The notes beneath the pieces were generated by a model that did not search any database, had not been told where the DNA came from, and saw only the letters and a program-made list of their open reading frames with translations. Of a stretch of DNA of 64,000 nucleotides, positions 15,882 to 31,558 are shown piece by piece. A program made the position numbers and the translations under genes. Where the stretch lies: contig JBEKPE010000001.1 in NCBI GenBank assembly GCA_049521055.1, positions 44,837 through 108,836 of the forward strand, given 5' to 3'. Numbering within the stretch: position 1 is the stretch's first letter; each line of letters opens with the position of its first letter. Origin of the DNA: Candidatus Bathyarchaeia archaeon (GTDB taxonomy: Archaea; Thermoproteota; Bathyarchaeia; 40CM-2-53-6).

Positions 15882-16133
15882 ATGCCTAGAAAGCTTCCTT
15901 CTTCATACTTGCGGAAACTGAATGAAGAGCAAAAGAGATCCAAAGTTTTCGCGGAGAAAGCTGCGGCCAAGAAACTGGAGCCAAAGGACCCGGATTCGGG
16001 AAAGCTCAAAGGGTTTACTGGGATTTGTCAAGCGTGTGGTTCTCGCACGAAATTCACGGTGGATAAGTTTGGTTACGCGACGTGCGGCAACTGTAGGGCA
16101 ATTGCCAGTTACAAGTTCGGCCATGTAGCCTAA
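15882..16133 (+). CDS. small zinc-ribbon protein (hypothetical)
   Basis: Lysine-rich N-terminus, then CQACG...CGNC. Confidence 0.3.
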   Translation: MPRKLPSSYLRKLNEEQKRSKVFAEKAAAKKLEPKDPDSGKLKGFTGICQACGSRTKFTVDKFGYATCGNCRAIASYKFGHVA

Positions 16134-16152
16134 TCGGAGGTCAATAGGTGAG

Positions 16153-16818
16153 CTACGTAACTACAGCTTGCTCTAAGGTATCGGCCCTCGCCTCAACCAA
16201 TTCGAGATTGAAAGTGTCTTCAAACTTCTTTCGAACCTGCTCTTTTACGTCACGGAGGTTCAGGTCTGTGCCGAGCAAGGCTTTCATCGAGGTCATGGTT
16301 GAACCAGAGAACCCGCACGGGTTGATCTTGTAGAAGTAATTTAAGTCCGTGTTCGCGTTGAGCGCGAATCCGTGAAAGCTTACCCAGTTTCTAATCGCTG
16401 CACCGATTGAAGCAATCTTCTTGCTACCCACCCACACACCAGTTTGCTCTCCTCGCCCCCCAGCGATGCCGAACTCCCTAATCGTCAGGATGAGTGTTTG
16501 CTCGATGTTTCTTAGGAATCCATGAATGTCTCGCTTTCTCTCATTCAAGTCTAGAATTGGATAACCCACTATCTGTCCCAAGCCGTGGTACGTCCACTGG
16601 CCGCCCCGTTCTATTCGGAATACTGGGACGCCATCGATTTGGGGAGGGATGTCACCAGAGACTGCTTTGCCTACCGTGAATACGTGTGGATGTTCCACGA
16701 GGATTAAGCTGTCCGGAATAAGTTTCCTTGCCCGAAGATCAACGAGCTTGCGCTGGAGTTCCCATACTTGTGCGTATTCTCGTTGGCCGAGGTCGAGTAG
16801 GTTTCCTTTCGTTGTCAT
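16153..16818 (-). CDS. lipB: octanoyltransferase LipB
   Basis: BPL/LPL catalytic domain. LILVEHPHVFTVGK is LipB-like. Confidence 0.8.
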   Translation of the reverse strand: MTTKGNLLDLGQREYAQVWELQRKLVDLRARKLIPDSLILVEHPHVFTVGKAVSGDIPPQIDGVPVFRIERGGQWTYHGLGQIVGYPILDLNERKRDIHGFLRNIEQTLILTIREFGIAGGRGEQTGVWVGSKKIASIGAAIRNWVSFHGFALNANTDLNYFYKINPCGFSGSTMTSMKALLGTDLNLRDVKEQVRKKFEDTFNLELVEARADTLEQAVVT

Positions 16819-18218
16819 TTCTGTAGGATGTGAATCGCTTTTCCTTTTGCTGCTTCCGCTGCCTCCATCACACTTTCTGGCAAAGTGGGGTGTGGGTGAA
16901 CTGTGAGTCCAATGTCCTCTAATGTTGCTCCCATTTCTATGGCGAGAGCTGCTTCGCTAATTAGGTCTGAGGCTTCGGAGCCAACTATGTGGACACCGAG
17001 CACTAGATCGGAGCTTTTGTCGGCGACTATCTTGGCGAATCCCTCGGTTTCGCCTGCGAGGAGTGCGCGTCCCAAGGCTGTAAATGGAAACTTGCCGACG
17101 ATTGGGTCGTAGCCTTTTTCTTTTGCTTGCGATTCGGTGAGGCCGACGGTTGCGATTTCAGGGTCGGTGAATATGACTCCAGGGATCGCGTGAAAGTCAG
17201 CTTCACTGCTCATTCCCGCGATAACCTCCGCAGCGACGATTCCTTCCTTGGATGCTTTGTGTGCGAGCATGGGTGGGCCTACTACGTCCCCTATCGCGTA
17301 GACGCCCGGTAAGTTGGTTTGCATTTTCTTGTTGACTTGAATGAACCCGTGCGAATCAGTTTGGATCCCGACTTTTTCCAGGCCGATTTCGTCGCTGTTT
17401 GGGCGTCTGCCTACGGTGACTAAGACCTTGTCAGCGTCAAATGCGCCTTCCTTTCCGTCCTCTAGGGTTGCGTAGATCTTACCGTCGCGAAATTCCTTCG
17501 CCTTGGATTTGACATGGTATTCAATGCCAAGTTTTCGAAGTGACCGTTCGACGACCCTGACTAGGTCGATGTCGGTTCCGGGGAGAAGTTGGTCTAACAT
17601 TTCGATTATGGTTACTTTGGTTCCAAGCTGGGCGTACATAGTTCCCATCTCCAATCCGGTCACTCCTCCCCCGATTATGGCCAACCTCTTGGGGACCTGT
17701 TGTAGTGACAATGCTTCGGTGGAGCTGATTATGCTGGTTCCGTTGAACTTGAAGGTAGGAAGGTCGTAGTAACGCGAACCCGTGGCTATGATGATGTCCT
17801 TTGCTTCGATGATTTCCGTCCCAGTCGTGCTCTTGACTTCGAGCTGGTTAGCTGCTATGAATTTCCCGGTTCCTTTTACGAGCTTGACGTTGTTTCCTTT
17901 GAGTAAGTAATCAATACCGGATACTAGGCGATCGACCACACCCTGTTTCCAAGCTTGCACTTTAGCAAAATCTACGCTGACTCCAGTTACCTCTAGGCCA
18001 ATCTGTTTGGCTGCTTCGACTCGCTGTTTTAGTTTAGCGACGCGGATAAGTGCCTTCGAGGGTATGCACCCAATGTTTAGGCATACGCCACCCAGCTTTT
18101 CTTTCTCTATGAGGACTGTTTCCTTCCCGAGCTGCCCGAGTCGTATGGCCGCAACATAGCCACCCGGTCCACTCCCAAGCACAGCAGCCTCGATCTTCTG
18201 AGTCATTCTAACCACCAA
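16815..18218 (-). CDS. lpdA: dihydrolipoyl dehydrogenase (E3)
   Basis: GSGPGGYVAA FAD motif, redox-active GGVCLNIGCIPSK and dimerisation domain. Confidence 0.9.
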   Translation of the reverse strand: MVVRMTQKIEAAVLGSGPGGYVAAIRLGQLGKETVLIEKEKLGGVCLNIGCIPSKALIRVAKLKQRVEAAKQIGLEVTGVSVDFAKVQAWKQGVVDRLVSGIDYLLKGNNVKLVKGTGKFIAANQLEVKSTTGTEIIEAKDIIIATGSRYYDLPTFKFNGTSIISSTEALSLQQVPKRLAIIGGGVTGLEMGTMYAQLGTKVTIIEMLDQLLPGTDIDLVRVVERSLRKLGIEYHVKSKAKEFRDGKIYATLEDGKEGAFDADKVLVTVGRRPNSDEIGLEKVGIQTDSHGFIQVNKKMQTNLPGVYAIGDVVGPPMLAHKASKEGIVAAEVIAGMSSEADFHAIPGVIFTDPEIATVGLTESQAKEKGYDPIVGKFPFTALGRALLAGETEGFAKIVADKSSDLVLGVHIVGSEASDLISEAALAIEMGATLEDIGLTVHPHPTLPESVMEAAEAAKGKAIHILQK

Positions 18219-18411
18219 ATTCAGATTTATGAAGCGAAATCATGGATTAAAATTGATGTTCCTGAAGGTAGGAAACAGAGCCGTCCATTCTATTTGCTAA
18301 CCTCAACTACCCGATTGCATGCAGAAATCTGCGGCGTATGGCAAAGCTACGCTAACCTGGTCTAGCTAGCGTTTAATGGTAGTCTAAAAACTGAGTTCAA
18401 ATTCAGTCGCC

Positions 18412-18434
18412 CGCACCATTAGACCCACACACAC
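18412..18434. repeat. palindromic repeat family copy R1 (CGCACCATTAGACCCACACACAC)
   Basis: Matches the GCGyACCAyTAGmCCCACACACAC consensus. Confidence 0.6.
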
Positions 18435-18437
18435 CGT

Positions 18438-18656
18438 TTACTGGTGTGGCAGGTAGACTACCGCTCCGATAGCGAGCGTAACAATTAGAATCACGGCGAA
18501 GGCAGCAGCGAACCTGCCCGGTGTCCATCTGATGCCGTGCGAAACCCATGTGGTGCCGCCATACTTCCAAGACAGAAGCGCGTAACCGATAATTCCAGCA
18601 ACAATCACAGCGGTTCCAAGGAAAACTAAATGCAGAGGATAACTCATCAAATTCAA
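18438..18656 (-). CDS. small membrane protein (hypothetical)
   Basis: Two hydrophobic segments and no homology recognised. Confidence 0.3.
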   Translation of the reverse strand: MNLMSYPLHLVFLGTAVIVAGIIGYALLSWKYGGTTWVSHGIRWTPGRFAAAFAVILIVTLAIGAVVYLPHQ

Positions 18657-18728
18657 AACATTTCACCTACCATTAATATGTTACAACTTGCTCTTACTGG
18701 TTTTCCTAGTTTTCTCAAATCAAAATCA

Positions 18729-18764
18729 GGTGTGTGTGCGCACAAGTGATGCCACACACACTAG
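18729..18764. repeat. palindromic repeat family copy R2 (GGTGTGTGTGCGCACAAGTGATGCCACACACACTAG)
   Basis: GTGTGTG / CACACAC arms. Confidence 0.6.
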
Positions 18765-18852
18765 AACTATCCCCCTAACGATTACCTTGTCATTGACGGA
18801 ACGATTACGCTAGATCTCATGCCTGACTTGCACCACGTTTTTCCGTGTCCCT

Positions 18853-19764
18853 ATGACCATTCTCCTCAATTTGGTGTGGAGAATGACAAGCAAACGAACT
18901 GCGTATGTAATTGCTGTTCTCCTAATTCTTAGTGCTGCGGTAAACATCATGCAGTTCACCCAGAGCTCAAACCCCCTGTCATTGTCGTTTAATTCTGGCT
19001 CGAATCAGACCGTTTCATATGAGCTTCAAAGTAGCTACAATGAACTATACAACCAATACGGAACACTATATTCTGAATACCAAACGCTTTCTCAGGAATA
19101 CGCACAATTCAAACAGGTGGCGTTAACTCCTCCCTATGTCTCCATATCCAAAGGAACGATCACATGGGTGTTCACCGACGTCAAAGGCGACACGATCACA
19201 TGGCAGCTGCCAATGGACACCTACATACATTACGCCTCAATGCAAAAACCAGTACAAGTCTTGTCGTTACAGACGACCTCGGGTACGGTAACGACTGACG
19301 ATGTACGACCATACATTCAACCTTCATTTTTCGCGAACAGTATTTCAAGTCTCACCGAAGGGAGATCGGACAAGGAATTTGTGAAAGAGGTCGACAACAT
19401 AAAGAATGAACTTGTCATTTATGGAACGAGTCTGGGTGAGGCGCCGTATCAATTTCCCGCCGAGACACTAACTGAAGGGACAGGGAAATGCGCCGATACC
19501 ACGATACTGATGGCCAGTATGCTAATCGCGGGCGATCGCGAAGCAAATTACAATTTCAATGTCTATGTGGAGTACGTCCAATTGAATCCTGACGGCACGC
19601 TCGTTTCAAATAGCAACTTACTCACCGACCCGAACCATGCTATAATCAAAGTGGTATTTGCCGACGGAACAGTTTGGAGCATAGAAACAACGACCAATTA
19701 TTTCTACACTTATTCCCAAGCTTACATAGGATGGCAATTTGACGTCACGTCGGTCAATGCGTGA
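18853..19764 (+). CDS. membrane-anchored transglutaminase-like (Cys-His-Asp) domain protein
   Basis: N-terminal TM. GTGKCADTTILMASML matches the GxCxDxA Cys motif, and NHAIIKVVFADGTVWSIETT supplies His/Asp. Confidence 0.45.
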   Translation: MTILLNLVWRMTSKRTAYVIAVLLILSAAVNIMQFTQSSNPLSLSFNSGSNQTVSYELQSSYNELYNQYGTLYSEYQTLSQEYAQFKQVALTPPYVSISKGTITWVFTDVKGDTITWQLPMDTYIHYASMQKPVQVLSLQTTSGTVTTDDVRPYIQPSFFANSISSLTEGRSDKEFVKEVDNIKNELVIYGTSLGEAPYQFPAETLTEGTGKCADTTILMASMLIAGDREANYNFNVYVEYVQLNPDGTLVSNSNLLTDPNHAIIKVVFADGTVWSIETTTNYFYTYSQAYIGWQFDVTSVNA

Positions 19765-19786
19765 CAAGCCATGAACGGTCGTCGTC

Positions 19787-19810
19787 GCGCACCAAGTATA
19801 CCACACACAC
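19787..19810. repeat. palindromic repeat family copy R6 (GCGCACCAAGTATACCACACACAC)
   Basis: Right half of the consensus. Confidence 0.5.
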
Positions 19811-20085
19811 TTCACCCGACATCGGACGACGGTTGGAATGGGTTTTTTTACTCTAGAGCTTTTGACGCGTAGCTTCCTTCCTAGAGAAAAGCTACCGGAG
19901 TAGCTTTGTATTCTTTCCAGTTGGAGCTCCCCGTAGCTTTCATGGAGCTACGCGCTCATGAGAATGCAATTGGCCTACTCGCGCGTGACGAGTGACGCCG
20001 TGGATGCCTCATTCTCTATTGATTCTATTTATTCACGAGAAAGAGACATAGGCTAGAATCGCCGCAAGAAGGGAGTAGATGAATA

Positions 20086-20511
20086 ATGGTTATGCCTGAC
20101 AACAAACTCAATGCGATCAACACATATTACTCACATGTGTCGCGGCTTTTTGTATCCAATTATGCAACGTTCTTCGCGGTGTATCTTGCCTTCTTGGCTC
20201 TGTTGTACAACGTCTCTTTTAGGACCGAAGTTTCAACGAGTTTCAGGAATGGATTCTTCTATGTCAGCGTCTTGATTATGTTCTTTGAATTATTGTTGCT
20301 CTACCGAGGGCTGCAATTTGGCAGAGTCCTGGATTTGATCGATAAGGAGTGGGCAGACCTGGGGATCCTTCATGTTAGAGAACATTTCTGGCCCGAGAAA
20401 TCACGCATCGGACAATTGAACCGGCTTTATCGCACAGTGTCTGTTCCCTTGGCAATGATCCTCACGATTTGTATTCCCGTGCTGAGTTGGTTCTTTCTCT
20501 TGCGTAGCTAA
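20086..20511 (+). CDS. membrane protein (hypothetical, about 3 TM)
   Basis: Hydrophobic helices only. Confidence 0.4.
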   Translation: MVMPDNKLNAINTYYSHVSRLFVSNYATFFAVYLAFLALLYNVSFRTEVSTSFRNGFFYVSVLIMFFELLLLYRGLQFGRVLDLIDKEWADLGILHVREHFWPEKSRIGQLNRLYRTVSVPLAMILTICIPVLSWFFLLRS

Positions 20512-20530
20512 GATGAAGTTAGTGGCACAA

Positions 20531-20567
20531 TTAGTGTGTGTGCGTCGAGTGGTGGGCACAGACACAA
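20531..20567. repeat. palindromic repeat family copy R3 (TAGTGTGTGTGCGTCGAGTGGTGGGCACAGACACAAG)
   Basis: Diverged copy. Confidence 0.5.
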
Positions 20568-20587
20568 GATGATCCCAAGAAGGCGGA

Positions 20588-20950
20588 TTGGTAGCGAAAG
20601 ACTTACAGCCTTATCCACTGCGAAATCGGAATCATGGTGAGGAACGGATGCCAGCCACGAAGAGTAGGCACCGACGCAGTAAGCCAGCCAGAAAACGAGA
20701 GTCAAAGCTGAAGATACTAAACTTGACCCTCATGCAATGGTTGGGGTTTGTCTTCATGGGTTTTGGCGTCTATGTGATGTTGTATGGAATCGTGTTGATT
20801 CCGTCGAGTAGCGTTTCAATTGGACCAATCTCAATTACTGACATTCCTGGACGTTCTGCGGCGGCAATTGGCGTAGGCGCGTTCTTCGAACTAGTCGGAC
20901 TAGGGTTGGTTTCAGGAAAGATCCACATTGGTGAGCTTTCTTTCGATTGA
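20588..20950 (+). CDS. small membrane protein (hypothetical)
   Basis: Basic N-terminus and 2 TM. The start may be downstream. Confidence 0.35.
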   Translation: MVAKDLQPYPLRNRNHGEERMPATKSRHRRSKPARKRESKLKILNLTLMQWLGFVFMGFGVYVMLYGIVLIPSSSVSIGPISITDIPGRSAAAIGVGAFFELVGLGLVSGKIHIGELSFD

Positions 20951-20960
20951 CTAGATATTC

Positions 20961-22187
20961 TTGAAAACGGACCATGCGTGGAATGGGAAGCAGATGACTT
21001 CGCCCGACATATCTAAACGGACAATCGAAGAGAGCCCAGCAGGGAGAAAAGCCAATCTGCTATTGGAAGATTCACCTGAGCTCATTTACATTTGGTTTGG
21101 AGGATTACTGATACGGAGTTCGACGGCCGAACCTGACAATTTGGAGCAACTGAGAGAGAAACTTCGGTCAACGCTGACAAGCCACAAGGAAGTGAACGAA
21201 GTGTCGGACCTCAAACCAAAGAGTAGTTTGACCTGGTATAGCACAACGGCTATAGGAAGTACCTTTCCCCCATTAGTCGCAACTATTCGAGTGCCAACCA
21301 GCGACCAGCCGTTCGCCAGCGCGATTAAGGACAATTCATCCGCGGGAATCGCTCTCGCTGAAAATTTTGCTTTCGTTACCGACGGTCAGCTGCTATATGT
21401 CGGAGCAGAGTGCAATTCCCATGAGGAGTTTCGAGGCATTTTACTGGGAAGCCCTGATGTTCGTGAAAAAATCATAGGACTAATCAAAGAGGCAGTAGAG
21501 TGCGAAACCGTCGGACCGACACCTGCCCAGATTCCGTTTCTTGTTGGGCACTCGAATGCGCCAGACTGGGTCAAGAGCACTGAAGCGGTTTTCGTGAGAC
21601 TCGAAGAGATGGCAACCGTCAAAGGCGATATGGCTAGTGTTTACGATTTGACGAACGATCGCTTGAGCACATTCTATGACATAAGGTATGATGCCGATAT
21701 GACGTTGAAACAAGCGCGTGAACTTGGGGAGGATCAAACGCAGTTACTCGATCAGCTTCTGATTTTGCTAAATATGCGATGGCTTCATCCGATTCAACGC
21801 AGGCGGGTTACAAACGACATCAGAAGGAATATCGCGAACATACTAAGGCTCCTTTCTCTTCACGGCTCCACCTCCGGCCGAGTCTCTGAGGATGTTGCTG
21901 ATTTAGATGCTAAGATTGCACGAGAAAACATTCTATTTGACGCTCCTCAGAATAGCTCCTCAAACGAGGCCTTAACGAAGCTTGGGTGGAAAAAACACTC
22001 GGAGGCAGCAATTGTTGACAGAGACTCGGTTTTGAGTATTGTTGAGCATGTAAGAAGCGAAGTGCAGGTTAGCAGAAATTTGTCTGTCACAATTTGGGCT
22101 GCATTGATAGGAGCTGTCATTGGGTCGATATTGACCATCATTGGCACCTATTTCTTCTCGTTGACAAAGCTCTTTGCAGGATTGTAA
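20961..22187 (+). CDS. ORFan 408-aa protein with C-terminal tail-anchor TM helix
   Basis: Soluble body with no recognised motif, ending in LSVTIWAALIGAVIGSILTIIGTYFF. Confidence 0.5.
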   Translation: MKTDHAWNGKQMTSPDISKRTIEESPAGRKANLLLEDSPELIYIWFGGLLIRSSTAEPDNLEQLREKLRSTLTSHKEVNEVSDLKPKSSLTWYSTTAIGSTFPPLVATIRVPTSDQPFASAIKDNSSAGIALAENFAFVTDGQLLYVGAECNSHEEFRGILLGSPDVREKIIGLIKEAVECETVGPTPAQIPFLVGHSNAPDWVKSTEAVFVRLEEMATVKGDMASVYDLTNDRLSTFYDIRYDADMTLKQARELGEDQTQLLDQLLILLNMRWLHPIQRRRVTNDIRRNIANILRLLSLHGSTSGRVSEDVADLDAKIARENILFDAPQNSSSNEALTKLGWKKHSEAAIVDRDSVLSIVEHVRSEVQVSRNLSVTIWAALIGAVIGSILTIIGTYFFSLTKLFAGL

Positions 22188-22234
22188 CAAGCGGTTCTAG
22201 TGAAGCAAACCTCGGAAAAGAGCCCGACGAAATG

Positions 22235-23161
22235 CTAAGGCATCTTAATTGGGCGTCTTAGAAATCTCCAACATGCAATCCCGGCCGAAAACAGTGCCAC
22301 TATTCCAAAGATTAAACCTAGCAGGCCAGGCAGTAGGGTGGGAAGAGTGAGGACGAATGCGAGAATGTAGGCAGCTGCCCCCTTCTTATCGGACTTTGCA
22401 CCCAAAATCGCACATTCCATAGCTCCAGAAACCAAGTAAGTCATAGACGCGGCGAACCATGGCGCTGGCTTTTGGGAAGCCGTAGTGCTCTCTTGCGCAA
22501 GTCTATCTTTCAACACCCAATTCGTCGCCGTGACTTTTTGAATTACTCTTTCCAACAGGATAAAACCAGGTAGAAACCACATGAGCACCACCAAGCCCGC
22601 TAGATCCGGCGTTGGTCCTATCGCATTTTGCGGAGCCACTACGGCGTAGTAGAGATAGCTTTCGAGGATGAATGTGAAAAGACTAAGGGCAGTGGCGCAA
22701 GCAGCTGACGTCCCCAGAAGGAGCAAGTCGGATTCCGAGGCCTGATACTCGATCAGCGAAAGATACCATCGGACGATCCTACGGCCGGCAAAGGCACCAG
22801 CCGCTGTAAATATGAGTGCAATGAAGACAGTGGGAACGGGCAGCCGAGGGAAGAAATCTCGGACTAGTATGAGCGGCGCCAGTCCCATGTAAAAGAATAT
22901 TCCAATTGTGAAACACAACCAACCCCTGACTCTCTCTCGACCAGTTTCGTCGAATAGAATTGCTCCGCGTATGTAACCGACATAGAATGGGTACAGAAGT
23001 CCTGAGATTAGGAGAGGGATGAATACAAGAAATACGCCCACGCTGCCGATCATTGTCTGCAAAATCGCAAAAACTAGGTTCGTGATCCCTAGCATGAACA
23101 GAAAAGCGTCGTCAAGGGCTTTGAGTCGACCTTCAAGCCGCGGTCTAGTTAGAGAGGACAA
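22235..23161 (-). CDS. polytopic membrane protein (hypothetical)
   Basis: Roughly 8 hydrophobic segments. Confidence 0.5.
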   Translation of the reverse strand: MSSLTRPRLEGRLKALDDAFLFMLGITNLVFAILQTMIGSVGVFLVFIPLLISGLLYPFYVGYIRGAILFDETGRERVRGWLCFTIGIFFYMGLAPLILVRDFFPRLPVPTVFIALIFTAAGAFAGRRIVRWYLSLIEYQASESDLLLLGTSAACATALSLFTFILESYLYYAVVAPQNAIGPTPDLAGLVVLMWFLPGFILLERVIQKVTATNWVLKDRLAQESTTASQKPAPWFAASMTYLVSGAMECAILGAKSDKKGAAAYILAFVLTLPTLLPGLLGLIFGIVALFSAGIACWRFLRRPIKMP

Positions 23162-23349
23162 AATCCCACGAATACGATTGATTTAGGCTGGCGCATATTA
23201 ATAGACGGAGCTGTGAATTTTGAATCGCCGTCGAGTCTAGAGAGGTGCATCTTTGTCTGACGTGTGGCCCCTAATATCCACTAACGAAAACGTGTTTCCC
23301 CGCGGAAATCGCACCTAAAGGGGATGACAGATCTTCCGGTTGCGATCAC

Positions 23350-24186
23350 TCAATTTGGTTTGTTTTCGATCTCGGTTTCAACCCACTTCCCTTTGATCGA
23401 GAAACCGAGATTTCCGTATCTCTCGCTAATCCGGATCGCGCAGATTCGTATCATAAGAGGCAGGAAGTTCGTCACTTCAAGCGCGTCTTTGTTACTAAGC
23501 TGGGTTACGCCAGCCTGCCCCTTCCCCACTACGACGTGCGCGCAACGATCACGTAGTTCGTGAATGTAATTTCTCAAAAGTCTTGGGCTAAACCGCAGAT
23601 TGCGGAATTCTTCTTGAAAACGGTCCAAGAATTTGTTCAGTTCCGTGCCGAAGTCTCCCTCAGATTTGAACTCCGACTCTAAGAGCTTGTACAAAGAGAG
23701 ATACTGATATTGCAAGGGGATATGAGGATCTCTTGCATCAGTAAGAAGTCTTAGTTTATTGCGAATTGAATGAGTTGCTACGAATACGTTGCGAACGTTG
23801 TCGAAGTCCGGCTTACCTCCTATGAATTCCTTCACGGCAATGCCCGTGCGCCGTGGCTTGCCCTCTTCTATGAAAGTCCACCAATTAATCTCCCAAAGAG
23901 TAGCCCTGTTGTCGTATGTAATTCGAAGCACCGAGAGCATGTGTTCTTTGAGAGATTGCACGATGGATAAATCCTCTTCCGGAATCTTTTCCTCAGCGCA
24001 ATTTGGAACGGTGATTCTGAAGAACAGTATCCTACTATTGGCTTCATCAGCAAAAAGCGCAACCTCGTAGTCCTTCTCTCTCGTTTTAACTGTGATTCGC
24101 GCTGCGGGTGTTTTGTTCTCATCATCTTCGTATTGTTCGAGTATAGGTTCAAGCGGATAATAGATGAAGCAAGTCTTCATAATCAT
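23350..24186 (-). CDS. hypothetical protein with candidate HEPN-like Rx4H motif
   Basis: YIHELRDRCAHVV contains R-x4-H followed by a helical region. HEPN assignment is inferred from this alone; no other family recognised. Confidence 0.45.
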   Translation of the reverse strand: MIMKTCFIYYPLEPILEQYEDDENKTPAARITVKTREKDYEVALFADEANSRILFFRITVPNCAEEKIPEEDLSIVQSLKEHMLSVLRITYDNRATLWEINWWTFIEEGKPRRTGIAVKEFIGGKPDFDNVRNVFVATHSIRNKLRLLTDARDPHIPLQYQYLSLYKLLESEFKSEGDFGTELNKFLDRFQEEFRNLRFSPRLLRNYIHELRDRCAHVVVGKGQAGVTQLSNKDALEVTNFLPLMIRICAIRISERYGNLGFSIKGKWVETEIENKPN

Positions 24187-24433
24187 ACTCTAGCTTTCGC
24201 TGAACTAAACCTATTCGTGCGAACCATTGAATTGATATCGAGGGAACATTTCAGAGACAGAATGTTGATTCCTTAGCCTTAGGCAAAACTCTATGCCTGA
24301 TTCTTTTGCGTCTTTGGCAAATGCAATTCTCGCAGGAGATTGATCATTTCATTCCGTTCGCGGTACTTTACCCAGAAGTCGTTGCAAACCATTTTATTTC
24401 GAGTGATTTGTCATTTTCTTAGTAAAGAATACA

Positions 24434-25138
24434 TTGGCGACCCAAATGAGTTCCCCGACAAGTTTCCTTGTTCAAAATACGTTGTTCTACAGATGGGAGC
24501 ATACGCCGCGTAGTGGGCGAGCGGTAGTCATCTTGTACGGCGGAGCAATGCTTGATGCCCGCTGCTCTGGCACCTACAACGTCTACTCTGAGGCGTTTAG
24601 TATGAAACCTGTCAACGAGCAGGCATGGGTTAGTGAGCTTTTCGATTACGGATTAGATGTGGTGGCCCTCAGGACTGGTTCCACTTACTCAGGTTTCGAG
24701 TGTTATAGGGCGGGAGATACTTGGGTCAGGGATCTGATTGACCACCTGCAAGAGTTGCACGGAGGAGAGGTTTGTCTCTTCGGGCATAGTGCGGGGGGTT
24801 TGATTACCGCCTATGAGATTCAAGAACGGACAAGCATTACCGCAGCCGTTGTGGTGAGCGCCCCGATGCTAAGTGAACCCGATGCCCTATTCGAAACTCC
24901 GACCCATGCCTCGAATGTTAAGGCAAACCTACTTCTACAATGGGGGCAACAGGATCAACTTTGGACCAGGCGAATGCCTGAATACTACCAGAACGCGCAA
25001 GGCTGCGGCCACACCATTCAGAGAGACGACACCTACCCCGGCAATCTGCATGATACCTACTTCACCCAAGCCGCGCAAACACAAAGGAACAATGCGAAAG
25101 CCTTCCTAACCAACGCACAGGAGAACCTAGGTGACTAG
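24434..25138 (+). CDS. alpha/beta-hydrolase fold protein
   Basis: LFGHSAGG nucleophile elbow (GxSxG). Confidence 0.6.
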   Translation: MATQMSSPTSFLVQNTLFYRWEHTPRSGRAVVILYGGAMLDARCSGTYNVYSEAFSMKPVNEQAWVSELFDYGLDVVALRTGSTYSGFECYRAGDTWVRDLIDHLQELHGGEVCLFGHSAGGLITAYEIQERTSITAAVVVSAPMLSEPDALFETPTHASNVKANLLLQWGQQDQLWTRRMPEYYQNAQGCGHTIQRDDTYPGNLHDTYFTQAAQTQRNNAKAFLTNAQENLGD

Positions 25139-25178
25139 GTCCATCGTAAATCCGCCCGTCGTCGTTAACCGTTATTTT

Positions 25179-25210
25179 TAGTGTGTGTGCGCACCACTAG
25201 CCCACACACA
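25179..25210. repeat. palindromic repeat family copy R4 (TAGTGTGTGTGCGCACCACTAGCCCACACACAC)
   Basis: Best full-length copy. Followed by TTTT. Confidence 0.65.
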
Positions 25211-25278
25211 CTTTTACAAGCCACGCTAACGCTGGGAACGACGACAGTGGCAGACGACGATATGAACTGTGTTTGGAT

Positions 25279-26148
25279 TTATTCCCCCCAGGCAGCATAA
25301 CAGAAGCCAACCGTATCGCTAAGCCTCGCAAGAGGATGCTTCCAATGAATTCTGCCCACGGGACTCCGCCCATATGACCCTTCGGGATCGTAGTTTTCAG
25401 CAATCGCTGACAATTCAAGATGGGAAAGCCCTTTGAAGAATTTCCTCATAGAGTTTGCCTCTTCCTCGACCGCCTCTCTGATGTCATTATCCCGAGAGGA
25501 ATCTTGTGGGATTTCGTCTGGATCATAACCCTCTTGATAGCCATAGTACTCGTCGTAGAGTGCCTCCTCAAGACCGGAGAGTGAACCAACTTCATATGTG
25601 TACGATGCTATTTCATGACTATTATCACAATGTGGACAGTACTTCCATATTGCCTGTTCATCACTGATGTCAGCGATTTGGTAGTGTGTCGTTGAGCCGG
25701 GCACCAAATAGAGAATATAATATGCGAAGCGATTGCAGTTGTGACAAATCGGAAAACGCAACGGGAAGAGTTCGATCTCATTAGAGTCAATGTCCACGAG
25801 AGCAATTTCATATTTCTTCCCGCGCGTCTGTATGGAGTCAACATAATCGTCAATGTTCTTGTAATTGATATTGGTAGTTACATCAAAATTGGTCATAGTA
25901 CGACCGTTTGTCTTAAGTCCGGTAAAATCCGCCTTCGCTCCCGAGTCAAGCAGAGGTTCCAAATAGTACTGATCTTTGTAACGGTCGTAGAAGATTAATT
26001 CTCCTCGGGTCCCGACCACTATACGTTTATCGAGTGGTGACTTGTCAAGAATCCTCATGGCGGAGTCAAGTCCATAACGTTCGTAGGTTGCAAACACGTG
26101 AGCTCTCAAATCTCTTAACTGCGTAGCAGGATGAGATCTCAAAGTCAA
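25279..26148 (-). CDS. ORFan protein with CxxC...CxxC zinc ribbon
   Basis: CHNCN...CPHCDN and an acidic C-terminal region. Confidence 0.45.
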   Translation of the reverse strand: MTLRSHPATQLRDLRAHVFATYERYGLDSAMRILDKSPLDKRIVVGTRGELIFYDRYKDQYYLEPLLDSGAKADFTGLKTNGRTMTNFDVTTNINYKNIDDYVDSIQTRGKKYEIALVDIDSNEIELFPLRFPICHNCNRFAYYILYLVPGSTTHYQIADISDEQAIWKYCPHCDNSHEIASYTYEVGSLSGLEEALYDEYYGYQEGYDPDEIPQDSSRDNDIREAVEEEANSMRKFFKGLSHLELSAIAENYDPEGSYGRSPVGRIHWKHPLARLSDTVGFCYAAWGE

Positions 26149-26357
26149 GGCGAACCTCCTTACTTTCAGTCTTATTGCCCTATTATCTTCTTATTTGCGA
26201 CTCCTCACAGTTAAGCTCAAGATTCAATTCAATTGACTCCAGAAAACAAAGAGTCGATGACTACTTTCCTAAGGCAACTTCGTCATTCTCGGAAGTCTTG
26301 AGCCTGTTCCATCGAGAATCGAAGGCGACGCCTCTCATGCCCCTGATTTGGATTCTT

Positions 26358-26390
26358 GGTGGGTGTGCGTACCATTAGACCCACACACAC
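26358..26390. repeat. palindromic repeat family copy R5 (GGTGGGTGTGCGTACCATTAGACCCACACACAC)
   Basis: Near-identical to R1 over ACCATTAGACCCACACACAC. Confidence 0.65.
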
Positions 26391-26567
26391 AAAATTGCAT
26401 GAACACCGACGGTTCAGGAGTTGCCTACGCGTTCCTATATTCCATCCTTCCGTTCGTCGCTCGCTATTTCATTTAGAGGCCACACCTTTGGATGAGCGTG
26501 GCCGTGGAAGATTTGGGAAAGAATAGTTTGGTTACCTTGCCTTTCGGTTCACTAAGTCCGCGTTCAG

Positions 26568-27116
26568 TTGGACGCAATCGCGGGATCAATTTCTGTACCT
26601 AAATACCTAACGGCAAGCAGTCGGTCTGGCAGAGGCTTAATGCCATTTCATGTTAGGCACGCCATTGGCGAGGATCACGCTTCAATTCTTGAGATAGCGA
26701 GATCCCTGAGCCCCGAATGGTTTAGTGAACTGGGAATCAAGGATATCGCTAGAGACCTTCAGATCGAAAAGGGATTGATAGCCGAGGAAGATGGGAAGGC
26801 TGTCGGTTTTGTGATCTACTGTGCCAAAGACGACAGGACGGCGGAGTTGAGCTGGATTGGCGTTCGTCCAGAAATTCACAGAAAGGGCATCGGTCGAGCC
26901 CTTGTGAGCGCCCTTGAAGCCTCGCTAGCACAACGCGGGTTTCGGACCCTTGAAGTATCTACAGTCGCTGCAACGATCGAAGACGAATCCTACTCTAGAA
27001 CAAGAAGCTTCTATCGCGCCGTTGGGTTCTCGGATGTTCAAATTGATATGAAATGGTATCCGAGTGGGGCTGATAGGCTCCTGCTGAAGAAGCCTCTATC
27101 CAGTCAAGCGAAGTAA
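26568..27116 (+). CDS. GNAT family N-acetyltransferase
   Basis: IHRKGIGRALVSALE motif A. Confidence 0.75.
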   Translation: MDAIAGSISVPKYLTASSRSGRGLMPFHVRHAIGEDHASILEIARSLSPEWFSELGIKDIARDLQIEKGLIAEEDGKAVGFVIYCAKDDRTAELSWIGVRPEIHRKGIGRALVSALEASLAQRGFRTLEVSTVAATIEDESYSRTRSFYRAVGFSDVQIDMKWYPSGADRLLLKKPLSSQAK

Positions 27117-27174
27117 GTTCTCTCAGAATAACGGCAGGACTTCATAAGTCCATTCTGAGCGTTTAGAGCGTCAT

Positions 27175-28431
27175 TTAGTCCGTCTCGAGAAGAAGGAGCT
27201 TTGGATCTTCTAGGTATTGTTTGATTGCGTTTACGAAACGGGCTGCCATTGCGCCATCCAATACTCTGTGGTCGAAGGATAGGGAGAGGTAGGTCATGTC
27301 GCGGATTGTGATTTGGTTGTCTTTGACGACTGGCCGTTTGGTGATTTTATGTAGCCCAAGTATCGCGACTTCTGGGTAATTGATTATTGGGGTAGCGAAC
27401 ACTCCGCCGATTCCACCTACGTTGGTTATTGTAAAGGTGCTTCCCTGAACTTCATTCAACGCCAACTGACCTGCATGAGCTTTCTCGCTCAGGGTTGCAA
27501 TTTCTGTTGCGAGTTGAGTTATCGATTTGCGATCGGCATCTTTGACCACCGGAACTACTAACCCCGACTCAGTGTCAGTCGCTATTCCAATATTGTAGTA
27601 TTTCTTGAGCACTATCTCCTCTTTTTCGTCGTCCAAACTGGAGTTTAGGTACGGGTACTGTTTCAGTGCCGGAATTAGCGCCTTCATGACGAAGGGCAGG
27701 TAGGTCAACTTTACTCCACGCTTCTCAGCGGCAGCCTTCGCCGTCTCTCTCAGGTGGACGACTTCGGTCATGTCAACTTCGTCCACGTGGGTTACTTGTG
27801 CCGCCGCATTCTTGGATTTGAGCATATGTTCCGCAACTTTTCTTCGGATTCCGCGTAACGGAACCCGCTCCTCAACACCACGCGGCCCAGAAGTGGTCAC
27901 GGTTACAGCCGCGACCGCTCCCCCTAGCTGTTTGAACCGTTGCACGTCCTCGTCTGTAATTCGGCCTCCGCGGCCAGTTCCCTGGACAACAGATAGGTCT
28001 ACGCCAAGATCTCTCGCAAGCTTTCGAGTCGCAGGTGTCGCTAAGACTTCTTCGGGTTTCCGTGAAACTTGAGGGGGGGTTGTTAGTGGGATTTCTTGGG
28101 GCCTAGCAATCGTGGGTGTTTTCGCGGGTGTGGGAAGAGATGGTTTCGTGGCGACGGGGGTTCTTTCTGATCCCGGAACACTTGGTTGTCCACCTTTCTC
28201 TTCTATTGAGAGGAGAGCTTGTCCTACCTTGACGACTTCGCCCTCTTTGGCCATGAGTTTCTGGATTGTTCCTTGCTTGGGGGAAGGTATCTCTACGTTG
28301 ACCTTATCGGTCATGATCTCGACGAGGGGCTGGTTCTCCTTAATCGAGTCTCCTTCTTTCACAAGCCATTTGACAACCTCGCCTTCAGCCACGCCTTCAC
28401 CTATGTCCGGAAGGCGAAACTCGTAGACCAA
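27175..28431 (-). CDS. 2-oxoacid dehydrogenase E2 dihydrolipoamide acyltransferase
   Basis: N-terminal lipoyl domain (IMTDKVNVEIPSP), PSBD segment and C-terminal catalytic DHRVLDGA. Confidence 0.9.
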   Translation of the reverse strand: MVYEFRLPDIGEGVAEGEVVKWLVKEGDSIKENQPLVEIMTDKVNVEIPSPKQGTIQKLMAKEGEVVKVGQALLSIEEKGGQPSVPGSERTPVATKPSLPTPAKTPTIARPQEIPLTTPPQVSRKPEEVLATPATRKLARDLGVDLSVVQGTGRGGRITDEDVQRFKQLGGAVAAVTVTTSGPRGVEERVPLRGIRRKVAEHMLKSKNAAAQVTHVDEVDMTEVVHLRETAKAAAEKRGVKLTYLPFVMKALIPALKQYPYLNSSLDDEKEEIVLKKYYNIGIATDTESGLVVPVVKDADRKSITQLATEIATLSEKAHAGQLALNEVQGSTFTITNVGGIGGVFATPIINYPEVAILGLHKITKRPVVKDNQITIRDMTYLSLSFDHRVLDGAMAARFVNAIKQYLEDPKLLLLETD

Positions 28432-28451
28432 TTAGTATCACTTTGTCCTGG

Positions 28452-29426
28452 TTAGAAGTTGTGGACTTTTTCGATTGCTGTTAGGACCCGAGTGGCGTTG
28501 GGCATGTATTCGTCTTCGAGAACGTATGGGAACGGGACGTCGAAGCCTGCTACCCGTAGGATAGGCGCCTTCAAACTTAGAATGCAACGTTCCGCGATCT
28601 GTGCCGCTATTTCTGCGCCGAACCCGCAGGTCTTGCATGCTTCGTGTAGAATCACAACCCTTCCTGTTTTCTTAACTGAATTGATGATTGTTTCGATGTC
28701 GAAGGGTACGATGGTTCTGATGTCAACCACTTCCACATTGATGCCTTTGGCCGCCGCAAGTTCCGCCGCTTCCAATGCTACGTGGAGCATCGCCCCGTAA
28801 GCGAACACGACTACATCATTACCCTCGCGAGCGATGTTGGCCTTGCCTATGGGGACTGTGTATTCCTCGTCGGGTACCTCTCCGCGGACTGTTCGATAGA
28901 TTTTCTTCGGCTCAAGAAACATGACAGGATCGGGATCGCGCATTGCGGATGTGAGTAGGCCTTTGGCGTCGTAGGGTGTTGCTGGAATCACAACTTTGAG
29001 TCCCGGTGTGTGGGCGAAGAAGGCTTCAGTGCTTTGAGAATGGTAATGGCTGCCCCTGATACCGCCCCCGTAAGGGGTCCTGATCACGACTGGGGTTGTG
29101 TATTGGCCTCCGGATCGGTATCGGAACTTGGCAAGTTCGCTTTGGATTTGGTCGAACCCTGGGTAAATGAAATCCATGAACTGAATCTCCGGTACAGGCC
29201 TTAACCCATAGAGGGCCATTCCGATGGAGACCCCGATGATTCCTGATTCGGCGAGGGGTGTGTCGATGACGCGGTTTGGGCCAAATTCTTGGTATAATCC
29301 TTCAGTTGCTCGAAAAACGCCGCCGTTGATGCCTACATCTTCACCCAGTATTACCACCTTGTCGTTTCGCGTCATCTCTTCCCGTAACGCGTGGTTGACT
29401 GCTTGAACCACGTTCAGAACGGTCAA
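28452..29426 (-). CDS. 2-oxoacid dehydrogenase E1 beta subunit
   Basis: Transketolase-like pyrimidine-binding and C-terminal domains. Confidence 0.9.
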   Translation of the reverse strand: MTVLNVVQAVNHALREEMTRNDKVVILGEDVGINGGVFRATEGLYQEFGPNRVIDTPLAESGIIGVSIGMALYGLRPVPEIQFMDFIYPGFDQIQSELAKFRYRSGGQYTTPVVIRTPYGGGIRGSHYHSQSTEAFFAHTPGLKVVIPATPYDAKGLLTSAMRDPDPVMFLEPKKIYRTVRGEVPDEEYTVPIGKANIAREGNDVVVFAYGAMLHVALEAAELAAAKGINVEVVDIRTIVPFDIETIINSVKKTGRVVILHEACKTCGFGAEIAAQIAERCILSLKAPILRVAGFDVPFPYVLEDEYMPNATRVLTAIEKVHNF

Positions 29427-30511
29427 TTATGGTCCCCTTGCTGCTTCTCTTCGCGCAGCTCTCTCAACTGTTCTTCGAGATTCCACGGCATTTCGGCGTA
29501 CACATCTGTGAATAGGGTTTCGAGTGCGGGTTTCGGTAGTTTCTCAGCGTGCTGGACCGCTTCGTCTATTTCGCGGTTTGTTTCATCCTGTGTCTTCTTT
29601 TCTTCCGCTTCGCTCCACATTCCCTTCCATTCCAGGTACTTTCGGAATCGTACCAGTGGATCTCGTTTCTGCCATTCTTCTAGTTCTTGTTGTGAACTGT
29701 AGCGTTTTGGATCATCCGAAGACGAGTGTGCGCCCATGCGGTAGGTGACGGCTTCAATGAGAGTTGGGCCTCCACCCTTACGTGCTTTTTCGACGGCGTC
29801 TTTTGTGGTGCGATAGACAGCGAGAATATCGTTTCCGTCGACGCGAATACCTTCGAACCCGTAGGCCTGCGCCTTGATGGCTATAGTCTCAGAAGCGGTC
29901 TGTCGCTCGACCGGGACGGAAATGGCCCAATGGTTGTTTATGCAGAAGAATACGGTTGGAGTCTTGTATACGCCGGCGAAATTCATCCCCGTATGAAAAT
30001 CGTTTTCAGACGTGCCCCCGTCTCCGAAGTAAGTCAGCGTCACTATCGGGTCTCCTTTGATCTTCGCTGCGAGGGCCACGCCAACTGCCTGTGGGAGTTG
30101 CGTTGCTATGGGTGCGGATCCCGTAACGTAATTAGCGGTCTTGACGCCGAAGAGATTGGTCAGCTGTCGACCTTTCTGAACGTCTTCAGCATTAGCAAAG
30201 TATTGGTCGAGTAGTTGATTGAGTGTGATGCCGCGTAGAAGCATTGAACCTATTTCGCGGTATGCGGGGAAAACCCAGTCTTCCGGTTTCAAAGCATAGG
30301 CGCTTCCAATATGCGCAGCTTCCTGCCCCAAACATCCAATGTAGAAACCTATGCGTCCCTGTCGTTGCAATTGTAACCCGCGAGTATCCAGGTTTCTCGT
30401 CAGAACCATTACTCGGTAGAGCCGCTTCAACTCGTCTTTGGGGATGTCTGGCTCCATTTTCGCGACTGACTCACCGCTAGGCTTGATAACCTGCAGTAAC
30501 TCGAGAGTCAA
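29423..30511 (-). CDS. 2-oxoacid dehydrogenase E1 alpha subunit (TPP-dependent)
   Basis: TPP-binding GDGG...N motif region. The stop overlaps the E1beta start. Confidence 0.9.
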   Translation of the reverse strand: MTLELLQVIKPSGESVAKMEPDIPKDELKRLYRVMVLTRNLDTRGLQLQRQGRIGFYIGCLGQEAAHIGSAYALKPEDWVFPAYREIGSMLLRGITLNQLLDQYFANAEDVQKGRQLTNLFGVKTANYVTGSAPIATQLPQAVGVALAAKIKGDPIVTLTYFGDGGTSENDFHTGMNFAGVYKTPTVFFCINNHWAISVPVERQTASETIAIKAQAYGFEGIRVDGNDILAVYRTTKDAVEKARKGGGPTLIEAVTYRMGAHSSSDDPKRYSSQQELEEWQKRDPLVRFRKYLEWKGMWSEAEEKKTQDETNREIDEAVQHAEKLPKPALETLFTDVYAEMPWNLEEQLRELREEKQQGDHN

Positions 30512-30625
30512 ACCTTAACCCCTATTGAGGCTGCGTGAAACGAAGGCAAAGCCGAACTAGGGCTTGTAAAGCTTACTCTTACAACGGGTCGTCTGAGAAA
30601 CTGCTTGCTTCAATGCTGTTAAAGA

Positions 30626-31558
30626 TCAGTTAATGGCTACCATTTTCTTCTTACGAATTAGCGCTTCGAGGAAGAACTCTCCAGCCCTGTATGAGCTCCT
30701 AACAAACGGGCCCGACGCCACGTACAAAAATCCTAGGTCATCAGCAAGGCGCTTGTACCGTTCGAACGTTCCCGGGCTGACATATTCGGCTACTGGAATA
30801 TGGCCCTTCGATGGTCGAAGGTACTGGCCAAGGGTTAGAACGTCTACATCTGCTCGCCTCAAGTCTTCCATGGTCTTGACGATATCACTCTCGGTTTCGC
30901 CCAAGCCGAGCATAATAGATGATTTCGAGTATACTGAGGAGTCGACTTCCTTGATGTGCTTGAGAACTCGAAGCGATTGTTCGTAGGTTGCTCTTGGATC
31001 TCGCACTTTCGGTGTTAGCGTTTTGGTGGTTTCGATGTTATGCGCAACCACTTCGGATCCCGCGTCTACCACTTTCTTCACGTCGTCCAGATTTCCTTGA
31101 AAGTCGGGTATGAGGACTTCAGTGATTACGTTTGGATCTCGCTTCTTGATCGCTCGTATTGTGGATGCGAAGTGTCCCGCACCGCCATCGGGAAGGTCAT
31201 CTCGGTCGACGGATGTTATCACCACGTACCGTAATCCCAAGTCCGCGATGGCATCCGCAACCTTCACCGGCTCGAAAAGATCCAACGCGCCGTGCGGGTT
31301 TCCGCTATTAACCATGCAAAAGCGGCAACCACGAGTACATGTGTCACCCATCAGCATGAAAGTTGCCGTTCCGCCGCCCCAACATTCAGCCACGTTCGGA
31401 CAGTGCGCTTCCTCACAGACGGTGTGGAGGCTATGATTTCGCAGGAGACCTTTGATCTTCGCGTAATTGTCGCCCGACGGAGCCCTCACACGTAACCAAT
31501 CCGGCTTCCCCTTTGGCTCAACATCTTGAATCTGGATCACGTGCGAGTATCTGGGCAT
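30626..31558 (-). CDS. lipA: lipoyl synthase LipA
   Basis: CEEAHCPN auxiliary cluster and CTRGCRFC radical-SAM motif. Confidence 0.9.
   Translation of the reverse strand: MPRYSHVIQIQDVEPKGKPDWLRVRAPSGDNYAKIKGLLRNHSLHTVCEEAHCPNVAECWGGGTATFMLMGDTCTRGCRFCMVNSGNPHGALDLFEPVKVADAIADLGLRYVVITSVDRDDLPDGGAGHFASTIRAIKKRDPNVITEVLIPDFQGNLDDVKKVVDAGSEVVAHNIETTKTLTPKVRDPRATYEQSLRVLKHIKEVDSSVYSKSSIMLGLGETESDIVKTMEDLRRADVDVLTLGQYLRPSKGHIPVAEYVSPGTFERYKRLADDLGFLYVASGPFVRSSYRAGEFFLEALIRKKKMVAIN

Follow-up and report, generated by a model that had tools for sequence, protein, structure and literature searches.

What separates the two halves of a 2-oxoacid dehydrogenase operon in a Bathyarchaeia archaeon, and how did it come to lie there? 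The window analyzed here is a 64-kb stretch (64,000 nucleotides (nt) of contig JBEKPE010000001.1), and coordinates refer to it unless another locus is named. The proximal operon half consists of lipA (30626-31558), E1alpha (29423-30511), E1beta (28452-29426) and, as its last gene, E2 (27175-28431); the distal half consists of lpd, encoding E3 (16815-18206), and lipB (16153-16818). All six are intact open reading frames (ORFs) on the minus strand. The organism is bathyarchaeial, as its E2 is 92% identical to that of a Candidatus Bathyarchaeota metagenome-assembled genome (MAG), L001. Between the E2 stop and the lpd start lie about 8.96 kb with ten ORFs of mixed orientation (i1 to i10). A sequence-only reading had described this layout, and both the operon genes (31558..27175 and 18206..16153) and the ten ORFs were found where it placed them. 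Its lpd start at 18218 (TTG) was a mechanical ORF call and had to be moved: relatives and a gene call of 463 amino acids (aa) from the Joint Genome Institute (JGI) favour ATG 18206, which is almost certainly the true start, giving 463 aa. With this start, the inserted DNA would span ~18208-27169. We propose, with a probability of about 0.5, that the insertion is a lineage-specific, fast-turning-over, decayed casposon-attachment-site island and not one functional system.

To place the insertion, the operon proteins were mapped by tblastn onto 80 loci retrieved with E2. E2, lpd and lipB were contiguous in seven of these relatives (L012, with 76% E2 identity, L003, L004, L010, L011, L013 and L071), with an E2-to-lpd gap of ~10-150 nt and no island at the syntenic site, in agreement with the expectation that E2 and lpd are normally adjacent. 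In L012 the E2 stop and lpd start codons abut (junction TAAATGAC); judged from the sequences compared, this junction type is the ancestral state. In the window, a 6-nt direct repeat, AATGAC, flanks the whole insertion, at 18202..18207 on the lpd side and at 27170..27175 on the E2 side, where its first A also closes the E2 stop codon and where homology with L001 resumes. In both the window and L001, (A)ATGAC follows the E2 stop and recurs at the lpd start, and this 5-6-bp duplication marks a single primary insertion event. The insertion also gave lpd a new upstream region (18208..18390, minus strand), partly common to L001: a stretch of ~216 nt next to lpd is present in the window and L001 and absent from L012 and L003, and a TATA-like CATAAATC can be seen by eye ~20 nt before the lpd ATG. 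The inserted DNA would thus provide a putative new promoter region for lpd-lipB, whose products are 87-90% identical to their L001 and L012 counterparts. An essential, tightly packed operon can therefore accommodate a swap-prone island precisely where the stop codon of one gene meets the start codon of the next, with the inserted DNA carrying its own upstream region for the downstream operon genes.

Could the arrangement instead be ancestral, or an assembly chimera? E2 is not followed by lpd in L002 either (DATKOK010000032.1; 66% E2 identity), where dCTP-deaminase-like, Lrp-like and GlmM genes come after E2; because other housekeeping genes stand there, the operon is not immutable. Against this stand the contiguous E2-lpd pair in seven relatives, the (A)ATGAC duplication that marks an insertion, and the agreement at 99.99-100% of three assemblies from different samples: the same island is present in L209 (JGI sample 3300037843; 99.99% over 15279-27090) and in L210 (Logan SRR12951267; 100% over 14532-22516). 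Since these independent assemblies carry it, the island is not an assembly artefact or chimera, and we give this explanation practically no weight. L002 is labelled Ca. Methylomirabilota but its archaeal-type operon is 66-84% identical to that of the window at the aa level; it may be mis-binned.

The content of the site proved to be variable. L001 is the closest relative, with ~87% nt identity on both flanks; in blastn comparisons, window 31558-27170 corresponds to L001 6872-11263 and window 18434-16001 to L001 17982-20452 (87%). At the identical junction L001 carries a different insert of 6.7 kb (11264-17981), in which no window island protein was matched, so that no island gene is common to both. 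The L001 island contains two HNH nucleases, a trypsin-like protease, an AbrB-like gene and a KaiC-like gene, and PADLOC matched its HNH and protease genes at the domain level only. Because L001 carries a different insert at the same junction, there is little doubt that the site is a lineage-specific turnover hotspot of variable content, and its content has turned over completely between the sister lineages. Composition adds no significant sign of transfer: the island has 47.6% G+C against 50.0% for the rest, inside the spread of other 8.7-kb windows (47.3-51.8%). The idea of a horizontally acquired cassette is partly right: insertion, flanking direct repeats and the differing content of L001 speak for it, but what was acquired is a mosaic, not one unit. 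In the Microflora Danica MAG L001, frameshifts split both E2 (L001 10001-11258) and lipA (L001 6872-7802); these probably reflect homopolymer errors in long reads and not true pseudogenes, and such errors may also have broken up small ORFs in the island of L001.

How the island was built may be read from a repeat. Six copies, all intergenic and all within 18.4-26.4 kb, were found, with none in the other 55 kb of the window and none in the conserved flanks of L001 and L012. They delimit segments of 0.3, 1.0, 0.7, 4.6, 1.1 and 0.8 kb, five of the six with a single ORF, and several copies directly follow stop codons. The count of six given by the sequence-only reading was correct, but only four copies (at 18729, 20533, 25181 and 26358) are hairpin palindromes, whereas 18391-18434 and 19778-19810 share the right half only. 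We distinguish two forms. Form A consists of GGTTCAAATT-N5-GCC, a 15-nt core CGCACCAYTAGACCC and ACACACAC; form B is a hairpin palindrome, GTGTGTGTG-CGCACCAYTAGACC-CACACACAC, whose four window copies give DNA hairpins of -6.3 to -11.5 kcal/mol. The heptamer GTGTGTG occurs 24 times, against 5.4 expected.

Copy c1 (18391..18434, plus strand) is of form A, reading GAGTTCAAATT-CAGTC-GCC, the 15-nt core CGCACCATTAGACCC and then ACACACAC (nhmmer, 48.7 bits). It sits exactly at the end of the homology with L001, where it is conserved at 17982-18024, and represents a full casposase-target-like site. Copy c2 (18729..18761, plus) is a form B palindrome with a diverged core and ambiguous orientation (hairpin -11.5 kcal/mol, z -3.3); c3 (19778..19810, plus) reads GTCGTCGTCG, CGCACCAAGTATACC, ACACACAC and is non-palindromic; c4 (20533..20565, minus) is a degenerate form B copy in inverted orientation. 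Copy c5 (25181..25211, plus) is of form B, GTGTGTGTG, CGCACCACTAGCCC, ACACACAC (35.6 bits; hairpin -10.7 kcal/mol, z -4.0), as is c6 (26358..26390, plus; 38.2 bits), of which 23 nt, CGTACCATTAGACCCACACACAC, match c1 at 22 of 23 positions. In L001, the segment 14907-17981 is bracketed by two identical 23-nt copies. Outside the island, an isolated short hairpin GTGTGTGTGCCACACGG at 46160-46176 lacks the core and was not counted as a copy.

The repeat is not peculiar to this window. A scan of JGI metagenome contigs with the exact pattern CACCAYTAGACCCACACACAC matched more than 120 contigs, of which 120 were fetched (the repeat contigs), and no IMG/VR contig contained the pattern. Among 128 repeat instances, about half were of form A, with the consensus cgGTTCAAaTT-N5-GCcCG-CACCAcTAGACC-CACACACAC, and about a third of form B. 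On these other contigs the repeats always lie between ORFs, in both orientations, and are often clustered with a spacing of 8-60 nt. The spacing of form A (TTCAAAT-5-7-A-CCA) is that of a tRNA 3' end, with T-loop, 5 nt, 7 nt, A and CCA. No real tRNA gene was found at 18300-18420 by ARAGORN, with introns allowed and relaxed thresholds, or by Rfam at E<=10, nor did the two detect one across 18150-18800, and a T-arm-like stem in 58 copies showed no covariation, with pairing at chance level save at the first position. Form A is thus tRNA-3'-end-like and not a tRNA. Genuine intron-containing tRNA genes in the repeat contigs have form A copies 40-230 nt downstream, and the 3' end of tRNA-Ala with its trailer (…GGTTCAAATCCCGGCGGCCGCACCA followed by TCTAGAC) resembles the repeat. 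tRNA genes with long introns and genome-encoded CCA ends occur at L155 2552-2687, L170 1236-1369, L093 2771-2893 and L200 160-298, each with a form A repeat close downstream. An Rfam scan of the window returned no known RNA family. An integron attC site or a CRISPR array was also considered and rejected, as core motifs, regular spacing and an integrase were all not found.

A homologue of i9 (48% identity) led us to an intact element flanked by such a sequence. Locus L211 (European Nucleotide Archive ERZ25039515, contig_13514) carries at 196-6850 a complete casposon-like element with perfect 182-nt inverted ends, and the i9 homologue lies 136 nt outside its right target duplication. This duplication is 15 bp long, CGCACCAAGGGTCCC, at 181-195 and 6851-6865, and is preceded by AAGTTCAAATTATGATGCC. 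The element encodes a casposase of ~409-476 aa (2716-4146; Pfam Cas1, 179 bits) and six ORFs without a Pfam match, and none of its proteins matched a polymerase; judged from its sequence it is apparently an active, PolB-less casposon-like element. The left flank, AAGTTCAAATTATGATGCC followed by CGCACC…, shows form A architecture, the same as that of c1, and the duplication is the counterpart of the repeat core: the two agree in length and position, in their first seven bases and in the motif upstream. The right junction, …GGCGGCGGGCGCGG followed by CGCACC…, resembles window copy c3 (GTCGTCGTCG, then CGCACC…) and the internal L001 copy (GGCGGGGGCGG, then CGCACC…); the left flank of c3 is similar to the GC-rich end of the L211 inverted repeat, next to the target duplication.

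Casposases were also prominent on the repeat contigs. Clustering of their ORFs gave as the top two families a small KaiC-like protein and Cas1. The Cas1 family (407-425 aa; Pfam Cas1, 170 bits) was compared through its L205 member (6769-7998), which aligned with the Methanosarcina mazei casposase structure 6OPM over the full length, including the C-terminal helix-turn-helix (HTH), at E 1.8e-74, against E 1.5e-22 for the best CRISPR Cas1, with the catalytic E, H and D/E residues aligned and conserved. On this sequence evidence the Cas1 of the repeat contigs is classed as a casposase. Casposase genes or relics were found on 10 of the 120 repeat contigs (0.61 Mb) versus one of the 80 E2-selected loci (1.29 Mb), that one being the L001 island, an enrichment that lacks a proper genome-wide control. 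The KaiC-like family (Pfam KaiC, PF06745; KaiC/RecA-like, 233-298 aa) was present on 16 of the 120. Its genes, for example at L168 4425-5126, L192 10174-11070 and L001 14110-14856, typically have repeat copies on both sides, and the members examined share the motif region ...LLPDGVEFGSNLLVEFEPDS. At L205 6173-9221, and likewise in L206-L208, an operon comprises a winged-HTH regulator, the casposase and a variable downstream gene, and is followed by a repeat copy; this arrangement recurs in L162, L168, L085, L124 and L189. The downstream gene is i5-like, AIPR-like, TIR-like, a 1561-aa STAND NTPase, or HEPN-like plus YaaC, and casposase genes thus seem to stand at the head of variable defence-type cargo. 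No ORF of at least 350 aa containing YxDTDS, the PolB motif sought, was present in any fetched contig.

Relics of the same genes mark the two islands. L001 retains a frameshifted casposase C-terminus (15805-16135), and its KaiC-like gene ends 27 nt before its internal repeat. In the window, the last 28-30 codons of a KaiC-like gene remain at 26270..26353 (minus strand), truncated exactly at c6 (tblastn, E 4.6e-5), and match the C-termini of eight KaiC-like ORFs. A casposase HTH relic lies directly upstream of an i7 homologue in L204; this 9.8-kb contig holds three casposase fragments (449-955, 2580-2837 and 7168-7394) together with the i7 homologue and a HEPN_AbiV gene, which suggests that insertion and decay occurred more than once. 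Casposase genes or relics were found beside homologues of i5, of i7 and of i9.

Family-2 casposons of M. mazei have tRNA-3'-end targets and 14-bp duplications with an invariant 5' CGCA, and show tandem insertions sharing one duplication, solo ends, HEPN/AbiF cargo and co-habitation with integrase elements (Krupovic et al., 2016, PMC4779613). Of known elements, these casposons and the islands at their insertion sites come closest to what is described here. The likeness lies in the full-length homology of the repeat-contig Cas1 to 6OPM with its C-terminal HTH, in a CGCA-starting duplication (15 bp in L211, 14 bp in M. mazei) and in a target resembling a tRNA 3' end; serial site occupation, solo remnants and HEPN/Abi-type cargo are described there too. 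In contrast, none of the elements or contigs here yielded a PolB, whereas casposons as defined are self-synthesizing; the window island lacks both a casposase and long inverted ends; and the target-like sequence has been amplified into very many copies of two forms, one of them palindromic and often tandem-clustered. Unlike the Cas1-solo "group 1", which lacks catalytic residues (PMC4046053), the casposases here retain them. The literature searched held no report of a casposon or stand-alone Cas1 for Bathyarchaeia.

These observations can be joined into a history. The common ancestor of the window organism and L001 gained DNA at the TAA/ATGAC junction, with duplication of (A)ATGAC, as the flanking repeats show; this DNA carried the form A tRNA-3'-end-like site still present at c1 and probably a new promoter that kept lpd-lipB expressed. 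To judge from the L211 element and the published M. mazei data, the 15-nt core, with CGCA at its start, is of the kind at which family-2-like casposases make staggered cuts and which they duplicate on integration. Repeated insertion at or near the site, followed by deletion, truncation and replacement, may then have left a mosaic split by core copies, which would hold single-gene segments and one five-gene segment, some cores being flanked by GTGTGTGTG and CACACACAC and so forming hairpins. The enzymes themselves are gone from the island: a KaiC-like relic is all that survives in the window, and the sister genome has kept two HNH genes and a KaiC-like gene along with the C-terminal relic of a casposase. 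That the repeats derive from casposase targets we consider probable. We are more tentative, and somewhat inclined to doubt, that the inter-core segments were delivered by casposase-type integration at or beside a form A site and then eroded. Unlikely, in our judgement, is a casposase-catalysed, leader-directed insertion in which form A would act like a CRISPR leader plus first repeat, gene-sized DNA would take the place of spacers, and the 15-nt CGCA core would be duplicated each time. If true, casposase systems without PolB would be assembling "gene-cassette arrays" in Bathyarchaeia; they would be a present-day analogue of the intermediate proposed between casposons and CRISPR arrays, and a new way for defence islands to be put together. 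At any rate, Bathyarchaeia possess an abundant tRNA-3'-end-like repeat family tied to casposase genes without the usual polymerase. If casposases really use these repeats, target choice and duplication by Cas1-type integrases become testable in a widespread group of sediment archaea, and so does the question whether duplication of transposon targets can give rise to arrays of repeats with DNA in between; both matter for the origin of CRISPR.

Besides the lack of a genome-wide control for the enrichment, several observations speak against the casposon-derived history. The island yielded no casposase, PolB or recombinase gene, and across all 64 kb of the window neither a casposase nor a tyrosine integrase of the L212 type was detected. 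The window segments have no inverted ends beyond ~9-10 nt of CACACACAC/GTGTGTGTG; long inverted ends were sought around these segments and around the other casposase genes, and only L211 has them. With few copies, one inverted and one (c2) ambiguous, a direct array is not statistically established; the six copies are homologous and c1 and c6 agree at 22 of 23 positions, and duplication element by element is not provable from them. The E2-side end of the island has no repeat copy, and the first insertion needs another mechanism because its duplication measures 5-6 bp, not 14-15 bp. Of the last 8 positions of the L211 duplication, 4 do not match the window core, and the L211 contig is of unassigned origin. 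Elsewhere, finally, the repeats form tight tandem clusters in both orientations, in the manner of repetitive extragenic palindromes (REPs), bacterial interspersed mosaic elements (BIMEs) or miniature inverted-repeat transposable elements (MITEs), and simple insertion scars do not explain such clusters.

The clusters would be accounted for if the repeats were selfish or structural REP/MITE-like hairpins that colonise non-essential intergenic DNA and perhaps double as transcript-end hairpins, the island having arisen by ordinary illegitimate or homologous recombination and casposons merely favouring this abundant repeat as a target. Some bacterial insertion sequences (ISs) target REPs. The always intergenic, bidirectional tandem clusters with 8-60-nt spacing, the stable hairpins of four window copies, several just after stop codons, the lack of long inverted ends and the fact that the i7 homology to other contigs ends at the coding sequence (CDS) are all in keeping with this explanation. 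However, no copy lies in the remaining 55 kb of the window or in the conserved L001 and L012 flanks, a distribution unlike that of genome-wide REPs; in two window copies, as in many elsewhere, a tRNA-like upstream motif stands instead of a palindrome; the KaiC-like gene is truncated exactly at a copy; and no REP-associated tyrosine transposase (RAYT) or other dedicated transposase was seen, nor a Y1 transposase near the repeats. We regard a REP/MITE origin as rather unlikely. As known elements, REPs and BIMEs share with the repeats here an intergenic position, a length of 30-45 nt, imperfect palindromes, high copy number, clustering and both orientations; they differ in that the repeats here are confined to variable regions in the sequences examined, have no RAYT found with them, and in one form bear a tRNA-like motif in place of the left arm.

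The overlap of the core with a tRNA-like acceptor end plus CCA, a classic archaeal attachment (att) site, suggests a further origin, in which tyrosine-recombinase integrative elements built the island at a tRNA-3'-end att site and the copies are attL, attR and hybrids left by serial integration and decay. The 23-nt direct repeats formed by c1/c6 and by the two L001 copies, longer than a 15-bp duplication, would fit, as would the i9 homologue in L212, 1.3 kb from a Phage_integrase gene, and the sharing of a tRNA site between M. mazei casposons and integrase-bearing elements (PMC4779613). But tblastn with the L212 integrase revealed no homologue in the 120 repeat contigs or the window, the repeat contigs carry casposase genes or relics in 10 cases, and L211, the sole intact core-flanked element, has inverted ends and a casposase and no integrase. 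We therefore hold an integrase-built island to be distinctly unlikely.

Other known architectures resemble the casposon-derived island in part. Integron cassettes and pdif modules likewise consist mostly of single ORFs between short imperfect palindromes, with a recombinase that is not necessarily adjacent. They differ from the island in that no IntI or Xer gene was found here, ORF orientation is mixed and two copies are non-palindromic; against integrons in particular, the repeat lacks R''/R' (RYYYAAC/GTTRRRY) cores and measures only 31-33 nt. The paper on archaeal integrons does not mention Bathyarchaeia. Tn7-type attachment-site and defence islands share with this locus a fixed site that gathers unrelated accessory or defence-type genes, with variable content and conserved flanks, but the window site lies inside an operon, stop-to-start, and not downstream of a conserved gene, the window has no Tn7-like genes and the repeat is casposase-target-like. 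Measured against what defines integrons, CRISPR arrays, known defence systems and REP/RAYT systems, the island falls short in each case.

Do the ten genes work together? The sequence-only reading had proposed an undescribed conflict or defence system, and one new multi-gene system acquired as a unit could draw on the HEPN protein with an intact Rx4H motif, on the membrane proteins that make up 6 of the 10 products, and on the i5, i7 and i9 homologues that lie among defence-type genes (DndB, TIR, AbiV, KAP NTPase and Nmad). The comparisons did not bear it out. A search of the ten proteins against PADLOC-DB 2.0 gave no meaningful match (the sole match was JetA at 11.7 bits), i8 and i10 belong to generic enzyme classes, the ten genes point in both directions and most are separated by repeats, and the genes that the sister genome holds at this site are unrelated. 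No two island genes occurred together in any other contig examined. Homologues of i7 (74-82% identity) occupy six other contexts, none with another island gene, nucleotide similarity around them ends at the CDS, and their neighbours are DndB and HinfI-type genes, a TIR-domain protein, HEPN_AbiV, Nmad2/Nmad3 and uncharacterized genes. Conserved pairs around i7 in L201/L202 (upstream genes of 105-118 aa, downstream genes of 358-369 aa) were considered and set aside, being neither homologous to i6/i8 nor conserved across contexts. Relatives of i5 follow a casposase gene (L205-L208), stand beside a KAP NTPase (L216) or lie among uncharacterized genes; those of i9 lie next to the casposon-like element (L211) or, in L212, near a methyltransferase, a DUF87 ATPase, an integrase and Cas4. 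A viral origin was likewise discarded, as the core pattern is absent from IMG/VR and PHROGs matched only the GNAT. One system acquired as a unit is accordingly very unlikely, and we are confident, short of certainty, that the island is not one functional system. Because the i5, i7 and i9 homologues each have unrelated neighbours and the content of the L001 island differs, it is better described as a mosaic of independent accessory genes, from a pool of casposase-associated, defence-island-like regions of these archaea.

Pfam thresholds were passed by i8 and i10 only, and PADLOC, NCBIfam and PHROGs gave no further family, so the statement that almost none has a recognisable family holds; "ORFan" is too strong given the homologues of i5, i7 and i9. 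A hydropathy scan agreed with the membrane-protein descriptions of i1 to i6. i1 (18438..18656, minus strand; 72 aa) has two transmembrane (TM) segments and no family found. i2 (18853..19764, plus; 303 aa) has one N-terminal TM segment and a weak transglutaminase-core-like C..H..E pattern; its description as a transglutaminase-like membrane protein is right as to the membrane, while the enzyme call rests on a sub-threshold Pfam match (Transglut_core, 14.6 bits against a cutoff of 23). i3 (20086..20511, plus; 141 aa) has three TM segments and no family found, and i4 (20588..20950, plus; 120 aa, or 100 aa in the Logan gene call) has two. i6 (22235..23161, minus; 308 aa) has ~7 TM segments and no family found.

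i5 (20961..22187, plus; 408 aa), with a C-terminal TM anchor, belongs to a family of mostly 345-400-aa proteins. A word-indexed search found one relative (47% identity), encoded directly after a casposase gene, and a profile search of 1.84 billion representatives found 97, of which 68 were below 1e-10. A profile of 49 family sequences had no Pfam or PDB relative, and the AlphaFold2 (AF2) model from a 2-sequence alignment was unusable (predicted local distance difference test, pLDDT, 37).

i7 (23350..24186, minus; 278 aa) joins an N-terminal beta-rich domain to a C-terminal HEPN domain of a MauJ-like family and has at least 60 homologue clusters in archaea and bacteria. E170, R212, C215 and H217 are invariant in 48 sequences, giving the motif LRDRCAH (Rx4H), and the AF2 model is confident (pLDDT 86.9); Foldseek returned no match. 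With both the motif and the alpha-helical HEPN fold, i7 is a HEPN protein, as had been supposed. It shares these two features with HEPN toxins, AbiV and MauJ-like proteins and differs from them by an extra N-terminal beta-rich domain of ~120 aa without a match; it has no adjacent MNT-type antitoxin, and its Pfam MauJ score is below cutoff.

The assignments of i8 and i10 stood, with Pfam matches above threshold. i8 (24434..25138, plus) is an alpha/beta hydrolase of 196-234 aa depending on the start (Hydrolase_4, 33.8 bits, cutoff 27), and i10 (26568..27116, plus) is a GNAT N-acetyltransferase (Acetyltransf_1, 54.6 bits; NCBIfam RimI-like below cutoff). i9 (25279..26148, minus; 289 aa) is Cys-rich (zinc-ribbon-like) and belongs to a small family, with 12 homologue clusters.

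Two further genes lie beyond lipB. A 390-aa ORF at 13545-14717 (minus), 1.4 kb past lipB, is TnpB-like (IS200/IS605-type) by sequence, and the island repeat is absent from its ends. An 83-aa Cys-rich (zinc-ribbon-like) protein encoded at 15882-16133 (plus) adjoins lipB and is 89-95% identical in L001 and L012, above the neighbouring enzymes.

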